Below are positions 42,238-46,549 of a stretch of 64,000 nt of DNA, piece after piece. The DNA is from Octopus vulgaris (Eukaryota), in contig OX597817.1 of NCBI GenBank assembly GCA_951406725.2, positions 124,620,001-124,684,000 of the forward strand. The letters run 5' to 3'. Position numbers and translations under genes: made by a program. Within the stretch, counting starts at the first letter, position 1. Each line of letters begins with the position of its first letter. The notes below the pieces were generated by a model that ran no database searches, was not told where the DNA came from, and worked only from the letters and a program-made list of their open reading frames with translations.

Positions 42238-42649
42238 TAAGGGTAGAAATTGATATTTATCAATTAAGACCAGTGGTCTAGCATTTGAAAAAAATAAAAA
42301 ACAGAAAGTTTGATGTAGCACAAACGTGACACTACCATTCTTATCATTACTGAATCTCTTTCTATATGAAAATCACACATTTTGCTTTCTTTCTAAACCA
42401 CTACTCCAAACAAAATATGACACAACTACTCCAAACAAAATATGACACAACTACTCCATTTTGATATTCATTTTTTTTACATTTTCTTTCTTGGTAGGCA
42501 TTAATGTGTTTGCAGAGGAAGAATTTTAGATATTTCCTAAAAAAATGTTATACAAATTTCCATGTGAACTGGTAGACAGTTGTACATAAAGTTATTAGTT
42601 CCAGTAAACGAGGAAGCTATACATATAAATTTACTCTTATATAAACATA

Positions 42650-42671
42650 AATATATATATATATGTATGTA

Positions 42672-43025: not shown

Positions 43026-43159
43026 CTATCACATTATACTTTTGATGCATGCATAATTATTGCTAACTGAACCATAAAAAGAAAGACATAGAAATTCACA
43101 CTTTCCTGCGAACACCTCCGAGTGCATTTCAGCTCTAGGAGCTTGTCTCTATTTTGCTT

Positions 43160-43791
43160 CAAAATTATAAACAACTTATAAATAAGGGCAAAAGAAAAAA
43201 AAATTCCTATACCAAATGTGCTGGGAAATAGACTTTAAATCGTCAGTAACCACATATAATTCATCACTAAAAGTTTTCACCTTAAAAGGTATCTTTTAAT
43301 ATGCTGGCCACTGATAAAATTTTTTGAAAATTTTATCCTATATTAGATGCAAATTTAATACCATTCACATCTGGGCAGTCTCTTACTTAATGGGAATTTT
43401 CACTCTGATCACGTGTGTCTTGAGGTGTGCTGCAAAATTTCTATTTGGATATATTTAGGGTACTTAAGTGTACCCATGGCTTTGCATATGCTTGTTCCAT
43501 GTGTGCAAGTAAGTATTTCATTTATTTCTTAATGTATTTATCACTGATGATGAGAAAATTATTTATGAATCAACTCAGAAATTGGGACCGATTTGGTGAT
43601 AATAGAATTTTTTATAAATTTCTGACAGCTTCCTTCGAGACACGTGTTTTTAGTGATGAATTATATGTGTTTCTTGACAATTTAAAGTTTATTTTTTGGC
43701 ATATTTGGCATAAGAATTTTTTCTTTTGCCCTTATTTATAAGTTGTTTATAATTTTCACCTTAAAAGGTATTTTTTAATATACTGGCCACT
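43160..43791 (+). mobile_element. hammerhead-containing monomer, subfamily 1 (479-bp period, 43274-43752, restarting at 43753) with an inverted 5' fragment (43160-43273)
   Basis: ttttcaccttaaaaggtat.ttttaatat.ctggccact at 43274 and again at 43753; 43160-43273 is the reverse complement of ~43646-43756. Confidence 0.8.
43538..43599 (+). ncRNA. type I hammerhead ribozyme HHR1
   Basis: ttatca CTGATGA tgag[19 nt]ctca GAAA ttgg-ga-ccga TT tggtga. Confidence 0.75.
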
Positions 43792-43836
43792 ATATAAGTT
43801 ATATATATATATATATATATATATATACAAATATAT

Positions 43837-44333
43837 AACTTATAAATAAGGGCAAATGAAAAAATTTCCAATGCCAAATATGACGAAATTGGACACCAAT
43901 GTGTCCAATTTGGCATATTTGGCATTGGAAATTTTTTCATTTCCATTACCATATAATTTTTCACAATACGCACGATACTCGAAAAAGGTCGACAGAAATT
44001 TCTAAAAAATTCCATTATTACCATATTGGACCGATTTCAGGGTTAGCTCATAAGAGCCCTCCCTTCGTCAGTGATAAATGTGGCAAAAGAAATAAATGAG
44101 ATACTTACTCATATCCATGGAAGAAGCAAACACTAAGTCATGAGCACATTTAAGTACCTCCAAATATATCCAAAATAGAAATTCTCCAGCCCACTCGAGA
44201 CACGTGCGATGTGAACTGAGGCTCTCACAGAGTGAGAGAGTCCGGAAGTGAACACTATTAAATTTATATCTAATGTAGGATAAAATTTTTTAGAAAAACC
44301 TTTAAAGGTTAAATTTATAAACAACTTATAAAT
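43837..44333 (-). mobile_element. hammerhead-containing monomer, subfamily 2 (486-bp period)
   Basis: aacttataaat at 43837 and 44323; reverse complement is colinear with, but diverged from, 43274-43752. Confidence 0.8.
44018..44077 (-). ncRNA. type I hammerhead ribozyme HHR2
   Basis: minus strand ttatca CTGACGA aggg-ag-ggctc-ttat-gagct-aa-ccct GAAA tcggtccaa TA tggtaa. Confidence 0.8.
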
Positions 44334-44368
44334 GAGTAAGTATCTCATTTATTTCTTTGCCACATTTA

Positions 44369-44547
44369 TCTTTCTTGGTAGGCATTAATGTGTTTGCAGA
44401 GGAAGAATTTTAGATATTTCCTAAAAAATGTTATACAAATTTCCATGTGAACTAGTAGACAGTTGTACATAAAGTTATTTAGTTCCAGTAAATGAGGAAG
44501 CTATACATATAAATTTATTCTTATATAAACATAAATATATATATATA
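44369..44547 (+). repeat. near-identical copy of upstream DNA 42485-42660
   Basis: tctttcttggtaggcattaatgtgtttgcagaggaagaattttag...tataaacataaatatat at both sites. Confidence 0.92.
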
Positions 44548-44648
44548 AGTATTTATAAGTTGTTTATAAATTTAACCTTTAAAGCTATTTTTTAATATGC
44601 TGGCCATTGATAACATTTTTTTTCAGAAAGAATTTTATCCTACATTAA

Positions 44649-44706
<58 letters not shown>

Positions 44707-44784
44707 TCAGAGAGAGAGAAAGTGAAGAGTGTGAGTTTATAAAGCTTGAAGTTGCTGGTAATTTTCTTGTCAAATTGTTTAAAT

Positions 44785-45170
44785 AAAGGTCTCTTGGCTC
44801 TCCAGTATATTTACCCAAACGTTACAACATACTTGAACCCAGTGCACCCATGCTTTTCTATCTCACTGAAGGTGTATTCACTCACGGTAGCTTCTTATTC
44901 ATTGGTGAGTTCTACCAGTAGGTATCTGGGGTGTCTATGTGAATGAAAATGGGTCCCAATATTGCCAACATATTTGTTGGATCAGAAATCGTCAGTAACC
45001 ACATATAATTCATCACTAAAAGTTTTCACCTTAAAAGGTATCTTTTATATAGCTGCTACACTGATGATTGTATCATCACCTGTGAACAACTGATTAACTT
45101 CCTCAGTTACTTCAGTTCATTTCACCCCATTCTTCGATTCCCCTGTGTCATTTCTGAATCCTCTGACTCC
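44785..45170 (+). pseudogene. Penelope-like element reverse transcriptase relic (motifs B' to C), interrupted at 44988-45047
   Basis: KGLLALQY / EPSAPMLFYLTEGVFTHGSFLFIGEFYQ*VSGVSM*MKMGPNIANIFVG (cf. FxFxGxxYxQxxGxAMGTxMGPxxANLFVG), then CYTDDCI..EQLINFLSYFSSFHPILRF..ISE (cf. RYIDD...FVNSFHPxLKFT). Confidence 0.88.
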
Positions 45171-45430
45171 TTTAACTGACTCAACTGCTCTCTCACCTCA
45201 GCCACGTTCTTCAAACCCATTGATACTTACTTCTCTTTTGACTTTTCTTCCCCCAACCCATCTACACCAAAGGCACAATCTCTTACTACCAGTTTCTCTG
45301 ACTCTGCCTTCTGTGCATCCATGACCAAGTTTTTGAGACATATGTGTGTGTGCATCTATACATGTATGTATGTATATATATATGTATGTGTTAGTATATA
45401 TATGTCTCTCTCTCTCTCTCCCTCTCTCTC

Positions 45431-45471
<41 letters not shown>

Positions 45472-45898
45472 TCATCATCATTATTTAACATCCATATTAC
45501 AAGCAGTCATAGGTTATTTATATATGCATGTATGTATATACACTGAAAGCCAAACACTCACACATGCTCAACCCACTTACATCTCACACATTCAGATATA
45601 AATTACATACACACACATATAGATATATCTATAAATACAGACACACACACACACAGTCTTTAGACTAAACAGTAGTTGCTTTAGACTTGGTTTGTTTTAG
45701 TGTGATCTTGATGTGTTGAAAGGGAAAAAACATTCTCTCATACATCATTTATTTTACTGCCTAACATGGCAGGCAACCTGGGATCTGATCTCACTTAATC
45801 TTGTTAATACATGCAACTAAATGACTATGAGCTTATGCTGCCTTCATATTTTTCAATATAAATAATTATAAATCAAACAAGTGAACATACAACCTATA

Positions 45899-46255
45899 GG
45901 TTAAATTTATAAACAACTTATAAATGAGTAAGTATCTCATTTATTTCTTTGCCACATTTATCACTGACGAAGGGAGGATTCTCACGAACTAACCCTGAAA
46001 TCGGTCCGATATGGTAATAATGGAATTTTTTAGAAATTTCTGTCGACCTTTTACGAGTAGCGTGCGTATTGTGAAAAATTATATGGTTATGGACAATGTG
46101 TCCAATTTCGGCATATTTGACATTGGAAATTTTTTCGTTTGCCCTTATTTATAAGTTGTTTATAAATTTAACCTTTAAAGCTATTTTTTAATATGCTGAC
46201 CATTGATAAAGTCCCAATAGTTTTAATTCTAGAAAATTTTATCCTACATTAAATA
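45899..46255 (+). mobile_element. partial subfamily 2 monomer; HHR3 bracketed by a perfect 27-bp inverted repeat (45899-45925 / 46147-46173)
   Basis: ggttaaatttataaacaacttataaat ... atttataagttgtttataaatttaacc. Confidence 0.85.
45958..46017 (+). ncRNA. type I hammerhead ribozyme HHR3
   Basis: ttatca CTGACGA aggg[18 nt]ccct GAAA tcgg-t-ccga TA tggtaa; quasi-palindromic stem III. Confidence 0.85.
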
Positions 46256-46338
46256 TAGAAAACAAGGAAACATACTAAACGCATATAAATGTTAAAAAAG
46301 AAAGGAAAAAGTGGAGGTAAAAAACGACATTCATTTTT

Positions 46339-46549
46339 AATTGTTTAAATAAAGGTCTCTTGGCTCTCCAGTATATTTACCCAAACGTTTCAACATACTT
46401 GAACCCAGTGCACCCATGCTTTTCTGTCTCACTGAAGTTGTATTCACTCATGGTAGCTTCTTATTCATTGGTGAGTTCTACAAGTAAGGTATCTTACTAT
46501 GTGAATGAAAATGGGTCCCTATATTGCCAACATATTTGTTGGATCAGAA
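46339..46549 (+). pseudogene. second copy of the Penelope-like RT fragment
   Basis: colinear with 44774-44987. Confidence 0.85.

Follow-up and report, generated by a model that had tools for sequence, protein, structure and literature searches.

The window analyzed here, a stretch of 64,000 nucleotides of the Octopus vulgaris genome (contig OX597817.1, positions 124,620,001 to 124,684,000), contains three type I hammerhead motifs in its 43-46 kb part, namely HHR1 (43538..43599, plus strand), HHR2 (44018..44077, minus strand), and HHR3 (45958..46017, plus strand). Cleavage is predicted to occur after positions 43593 (AUU), 44024 (AUA), and 46011 (AUA), respectively, with these AUU and AUA triplets being present as claimed in an initial annotation of the sequence. 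Each motif was indeed found where that annotation had placed it, with CUGAnGA, GAAA, and UH elements, helix I having 6 bp and helix II 4 bp, the latter being tgag/ctca in HHR1 (10.1 at 43551, 11.1 at 43577) and aggg/ccct in both HHR2 and HHR3. The motifs stand above chance: a pattern made of the core and helix III matched 535 + 580 places in the 2.8-Gb genome, that is, at least 1,115 exact-core copies, compared with 1 place for the reversed control. Rfam returned no hammerhead match at the gathering score for the window, nor any at E ≤ 5 for 43400-46200, a miss that is probably due to the long loop II.

All three motifs lie in copies of a repeat. HHR1 is carried by a copy of subfamily 11 that is slightly longer than one unit and is followed by a (TA)n tract (43275..43789, plus strand); this copy differs from the subfamily 11 consensus at 34 of 299 positions, and is preceded by an inverted, 5′-truncated piece of the older, subfamily 11 insertion (43158..43273, minus strand; blastn to the subfamily consensus, 90.5% over 116 nt). 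HHR2 is carried by about one full unit of subfamily 6 (43831..44336, minus strand) with a short internal inversion at 43897-43942, and the HHR1 and HHR2 copies meet tail to tail at a (TA)n tract without strand (43800..43828). A single CpG transition breaks helix III of HHR2, and the second helix in its loop II has a C-G pair where the consensus of HHR3's subfamily has U-A. Further downstream are a fragment of the 3′ end of the repeat, with TA/CA repeats after it (44550..44653, plus strand), and the copy carrying HHR3, a 5′-truncated member of subfamily 6 (45924..46257, plus strand). An identical 65-nt inversion junction is common to the HHR2 and HHR3 copies (44306..44370 and 45898..45962, both plus strand), which probably represent the arms of a single head-to-head insertion that a local duplication split later. 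Local duplications were also noted by eye around this insertion (42500-42660 vs 44385-44545, and 44770-44970 vs 46340-46510).

The repeat unit is 448-498 nt long, as measured on 10 HHR-to-HHR units; it runs back into itself and is non-coding, with a longest open frame of 69 codons. The same 10 units represent head-to-tail tandems, a run of three being absent from the loci scanned. A pattern anchored only in the flanks matched 721 genome places, compared with 0 for its control. When folded as circles, units are predicted to be 60-73% paired (z −2.7 to −7.2, 25 shuffles each), and one unit with an inversion junction folds as a circle at z −14. In 265 copies, the first downstream (TA)n tract was located after a first fixed site in 84, after a second in 66, and elsewhere in 74, and 41 copies had no such tract; 185 of the copies have an inverted piece upstream and 18 have one downstream, and the 5′ starts of copies are scattered. 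Fixed internal 3′ ends, a (TA)n target, 5′ truncation, and an upstream inverted copy, the features of a Penelope-mobilised insertion (PMC8557442, PMC11167929), are thus found together with those of a non-LTR retrozyme, that is, a non-coding unit of a few hundred nucleotides with one type I hammerhead, tandems, and a highly self-paired monomer. Judged from genomic sequence, the element is a non-LTR retrozyme with Penelope-type insertion anatomy. All 12 subfamilies, as well as a sister family described below, also have a splice-donor-like GT about 25 nt before helix I (45928-45933 in the window) and a pyrimidine-rich AG after it. An intron reading of these motifs is unsupported, with no spliced genomic copy at any place for the pattern tried and no GT..AG joint in four contig sets.

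Two further hammerhead families resemble the main one. The sister retrozyme family (86 pattern places, a few being decayed main-family copies; loci L292-L321, e.g., G000 C2:149,446,032-149,447,178) has a 543-556 nt unit and includes one trimer. Its core has U3-A8, position 3 being T in 29/31 motifs, and it has the A.A foot of helix II and the GGA/UCC helix of the main family and a similar 3′ end; no blastn match between the two families was found. A third hammerhead type (L315:1894, plus strand, and 1500, minus strand) has C3-G8 and the same helix II foot, with different helices I and III. The foot mismatch (A.A or C.A) is thus ancestral and has been kept, rather than being a product of decay, since it is common to the main, sister, and third types. 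Another type I hammerhead, unrelated to these, has a palindromic helix III and a long loop II and was observed as an inverted pair (L099:454, plus strand, and 3056, minus scan).

For comparisons within the main family, 286 loci were reduced to 274 distinct copies, from which two chimeric junctions and two near-identical duplicates were dropped; 12 groups of 8-55 copies were kept as subfamilies, a mixed group of 5 staying outside the 12-subfamily tests. In addition, the counts of CpG decay and of core and flank decay left out the 42 copies, of 270, that core patterns had retrieved. One fold plan is seen in all 12 subfamilies, consisting of helix I, the core, helix II, a 2×2 internal loop, a second helix, and a palindromic helix III. 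The loop II of HHR1, initially described as unrelated to that of the other two motifs, is in fact alignable, with the 2×2 internal loop and second helix of 4-5 bp being present in 12/12 subfamilies. Helix I has a short extension past a 3×3 loop, U occupies position 1.7 in 12/12 consensuses, and AA is found on the 3′ side of loop 2. A loop 1-loop 2 contact involving a 6-bp helix I, a 4-bp helix II, and an unpaired U1.7 has been described (PMC11875169), and the predicted geometry of the retrozyme fits such a contact. Unaided, RNAalifold recovered the second helix, helix III, and helix II, the last lacking only its first pair.

The first pair of helix II, its foot (10.1-11.1), is A.A in 4 subfamilies, C.A in 1, A-U in 5, G-U in 1, and G-C in 1; it is therefore paired in 7/12 and mismatched in 5/12, while the next pair is G-C in 12/12. 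The closing pair other than G-C noted in the initial annotation is thus real at the subfamily level and more extreme than claimed, and the foot is the least constrained pair, adjoining an invariant G-C. Furthermore, helix III does not form in the minimum-energy folds of 10/12 consensuses, where its 5′ strand is paired with the core CUGA instead. Because of the foot mismatch in 5/12 subfamilies and this competing pairing, ribozyme activity may be low.

Against this background, the evidence from three copies that was first offered for selection is weak and partly wrong, because one pair is likely a product of CpG decay, loop II is homologous, and divergence is no greater in the flanks than in the ribozyme. 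The two helix II pairs initially described as compensatory fare differently. The third position (A-U vs G-C) is a true subfamily difference; the closing U-A pair of HHR1, in contrast, likely arose by CpG decay of a C.A mismatch, as indicated by the state of its siblings (C.A in 24, T-A in 3, and gapped in 1 of the 28 copies of its subfamily) and by CpG transitions. CpG C>T decay affects 55/332 sites (17%) in this subfamily, and 7 of the 11 differences between HHR1 and the subfamily consensus in and beside the ribozyme are CpG transitions. The A-U pair in helix I of HHR1 that gives it a likeness to HHR3 is likewise probably decay, CpG transitions having occurred on both of its sides. Nor are the flanks clearly diverged relative to the ribozyme: identity between HHR1 and HHR3 is 44/62 (71%) inside it, 28/38 (74%) upstream, and 50/70 (71%) downstream. 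As a general warning, CpG decay in a single copy can look like a compensatory change.

The claim itself, that purifying selection acted on the fold in the source elements, is borne out by covariation measured against neutral simulation, by pair counts in 46 copies, and by a comparison of inherited with post-insertion changes, and is supported far better by genome-wide copies than by the three. Among the 12 consensuses, placed on a tree built from flanks only, 11/11 core columns are invariant compared with 67/130 flank columns, an invariance that is partly built in, some subfamilies having been reached through core patterns. Stems change more than flanks between subfamilies (1.13 vs 0.69 changes per column), and pairing is nevertheless kept: 218/228 stem cells are paired vs 169 ± 12 in neutral simulation (maximum 208 in 5,000 runs). 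By parsimony, pairing was kept by 11 double-sided and 12 single-sided changes and gained or lost by 7. Similarly, in an alignment of 46 real copies picked by flank divergence (2 of the 48 picked were excluded for large deletions), 90% of cells are paired vs 81.4 ± 0.6% after shuffling and at most 53% after sliding, and both-sided changes occur in 102 cells vs 41 in shuffles; two of the five measures applied to this alignment, pairs with double changes and pair types, were not above shuffles.

The time at which selection acted can be read from neighboring copies, of which 31 head-to-head and 15 tandem pairs were compared, nearly all of them made up of a single subfamily. Since 30/31 head-to-head pairs consist of one subfamily, an origin of the two arms from two templates was rejected as the rule. 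Private differences are common to both head-to-head arms in 34% of cases vs 8% for random pairs, indicating that the arms derive from one source and that the sources are many. Mixed-subfamily neighbors were observed at L065 (head-to-head) and L217 (tandem), pairing subfamilies 7 with 6 and 7 with 8, respectively, and suggest an occasional template switch or a second insertion. Changes present on both arms of one insertion were inherited from the source RNA, and can thus be separated from unshared, post-insertion changes. In the 43 pairs formed by one subfamily, and with CpG sites left out, inherited changes per site amounted to 1.75% in the flanks, 3.2% in the loops, and 0.36% in the stems, with 0/429 in the core (6.7 expected, P 0.0015). 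Post-insertion changes, which did not avoid stems, reached 2.6% in the flanks, 1.7% in the loops, 3.6% in the stems, and 1.75% in the core (15 vs 23.7 expected, P 0.044). Local duplication or conversion would weaken the inherited-change signal, not generate it. With respect to decay, the core stood at 2.0% vs 3.3% across all copies (P 0.0002), and 44 flank-anchored copies showed 1.8% in the core, 1.9% in near flanks, and 2.3% in stems. The simplest reading of these patterns is selection on templates with little after insertion; the small residual core deficit among post-insertion changes is not predicted by pure neutrality.

Overall, the repeat is likely a non-LTR retrozyme copied by a Penelope-type reverse transcriptase, with only copies of intact fold apparently having served as templates, a reading to which a probability of roughly 0.8 is assigned. 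In such a cycle, a read-through transcript longer than one unit would be cut by the ribozyme, acting either as a monomer or as a dimer joined by the palindromic helix III, and the cut RNA would probably be ligated into a circle. The Penelope enzyme would start reverse transcription at two fixed internal sites, copying onto nicked (TA)n DNA and frequently from both strands, which would give head-to-head arms. After insertion, most copies decay, mainly at CpG, HHR1 being one of them. The helix III homoduplex (10 bp, predicted at −11.7 to −15.0 kcal/mol) fits dimer cleavage, a behavior of hammerheads that has reportedly been addressed in work by Lunse et al. The steps of this proposal are drawn from those described in PMC7229834 and PMC4209133. 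Contigs of presumed RNA runs cover the unit, contigs by their nature showing neither ends, strand, nor level. One copy (L287:1160-1640), lacking 53 nt of the 5′ half of the ribozyme, is located immediately downstream of, and antisense to, a gene-like stretch that is rich in GC, and two contig sets cover both at equal depth; it is likely a passenger in a 3′ UTR. RNA processing as the origin of the main, deep contig joint of 53 nt was rejected, the joint corresponding to a genomic deletion in this copy whose depth equals that of its neighbor.

Selection on the fold need not mean selection on cleavage, and the fold might serve the Penelope enzyme as a protein-binding or RNA-folding signal. In favor of this, AUU triplets occur in the same 5/12 subfamilies as the foot mismatch, and predicted folds show the competing core pairing; moreover, in a lizard Penelope element, ribozyme mutants insert normally in vitro and cleavage needs protein (PMC11167929). 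However, the 11 catalytic-core positions are kept, and the positions that vary do so only as the chemistry allows, with N7 variable and H17 being A or U, never G. The C3-G8 to U3-A8 swap in the sister family is, furthermore, a covariation that keeps the catalytic pair (PMC4209133), making a role restricted to signaling improbable. A bolder reading is conceivable though doubtful: the octopus repeats might carry a hammerhead variant of their own, distinct and long-lived, in which an A.A (or C.A) mismatch is stacked below an invariant G-C and helix II has two storeys. This variant would have persisted in three families that otherwise no longer align and through the C3-G8 to U3-A8 swap, and would be a deliberately slow or protein-switched ribozyme; the paired arms of single insertions would then show that each round of copying by a Penelope enzyme in vivo depends on its catalysis. 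Ribozymes of Penelope-type elements have been suggested to be possible parasites (PMC8557442), and this reading, if true, would decide between a necessary role and mere passenger status for the hammerheads associated with Penelope elements.

In line with copying by a Penelope enzyme, the genome contains an autonomous element of Penelope type that is young, encodes RT and GIY-YIG domains, ends in (TA)n, and is present in many copies (L121-L126, e.g., L124:268-3968). It has a 781-codon RT/GIY-YIG frame, an overlapping upstream open frame of about 480 codons, and a U3-A8 minimal hammerhead in its pseudo-LTR. A helix in this element, GGUUC/GAACY, matches the second helix of the youngest retrozyme subfamilies, a resemblance that may be due to chance. 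A search for an autonomous parent of the unit was negative: blastn gave no match between the unit and the sequence of the 781-codon element, and a comparison with the young family and with 30 GIY-YIG loci revealed no related pseudo-LTR, the single match being a copy that had inserted into a (TA)n tail. These observations bear on the idea that the copies derive by truncation from pseudo-LTRs of an autonomous Penelope element, with selection acting on the parent and the short unit not replicating by itself. The Penelope-type anatomy would be expected of such copies, and frog retrozymes are related to pseudo-LTRs (bioRxiv 10.64898/2026.07.22.740005). Copies longer than one unit, however, run back into the unit and not into an ORF; no RT/GIY-YIG ORF was found inside or contiguous with the unit in 250 loci, where Penelope coding fragments occur in 7, at least 266 nt from the copy; and the sharing of private differences (34% vs 8%) points to many source copies, which leaves this origin unlikely. 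It is very unlikely that the double changes reflect common ancestry, CpG decay, and core-based ascertainment without selection, for although this holds for the closing pair and first helix I pair of HHR1 and several searches were centered on the ribozyme, the tree used flanks only, neutral simulation never reached the observed pairing, CpG sites were excluded from the inherited-change test, and 29/30 flank-anchored copies keep the core with at most one mismatch.

Metazoan non-LTR retrozymes, as described in PMC7229834, share with the octopus element a low-GC, non-coding unit with one type I hammerhead, tandems, and a self-paired predicted circle, and a weak helix II foot is also found among them (U.U in the axolotl HHR_Amex2). 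The octopus unit is longer, at 448-498 nt compared with 170-400 nt, and differs further from the retrozymes of that study in having mostly one or two units per site, an internal loop and further helix in loop 2, and an A.A or C.A foot. With Penelope-derived retrozymes, reported from a sample of vertebrates, three insects, and a coral (bioRxiv 10.64898/2026.07.22.740005), it shares co-occurrence with Penelope elements, a unit within the 51-972 bp range, and many monomers. Unlike in that report, no sequence-related pseudo-LTR was found for the octopus unit, the link being its insertion anatomy.

The hammerheads of Penelope-like elements (PMC4209133, PMC8557442, PMC6765202, PMC11167929) likewise have a palindromic helix III, (TA)n targets, two internal 3′ end sites, and a U3-A8 variant, as well as many consensus families per genome with compensatory changes and opposite-strand pairs 100-700 bp apart. 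Helix I of the octopus hammerhead, however, has 6 bp and an extension, in contrast to the 4-5 bp of the minimal form in those elements; helix III has 4 pairs beyond A15.1-U16.1; the unit is without an ORF; and its two end sites are about 84 nt apart, compared with 30-40 nt. A close parallel in terms of selection is the pDo500 satellite hammerhead of Dolichopoda crickets (PMC2837043), a 500-bp repeat with a conserved core and compensatory changes, including at 10.1-11.1, for which selection was inferred. In pDo500, conservation is higher in the ribozyme than elsewhere and higher in stems than in loops, whereas the octopus subfamilies differ from one another more in stems than in flanks, and selection can be dated to the time before insertion.

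Literature on this octopus family, on any octopus hammerhead, or on a 10.1-11.1 mismatch (A.A foot) was not found, although the supplements of retrozyme papers may list the family. Retrozymes (PMC7229834), their Penelope origin (bioRxiv 10.64898/2026.07.22.740005), compensatory changes within a genome (PMC4209133), and selection on a repeat hammerhead (PMC2837043) were, according to these sources, already known, whereas the family, the helix II foot variant, and the paired-arm test are new. The 12 subfamilies, with five states of 10.1-11.1 and both AUA and AUU, provide a natural variant series for kinetics. The octopus family also provides a genomic test of the role of the hammerhead in Penelope-type elements: inherited differences avoid the core and stems, indicating that an intact fold was needed for a copy to be a template.
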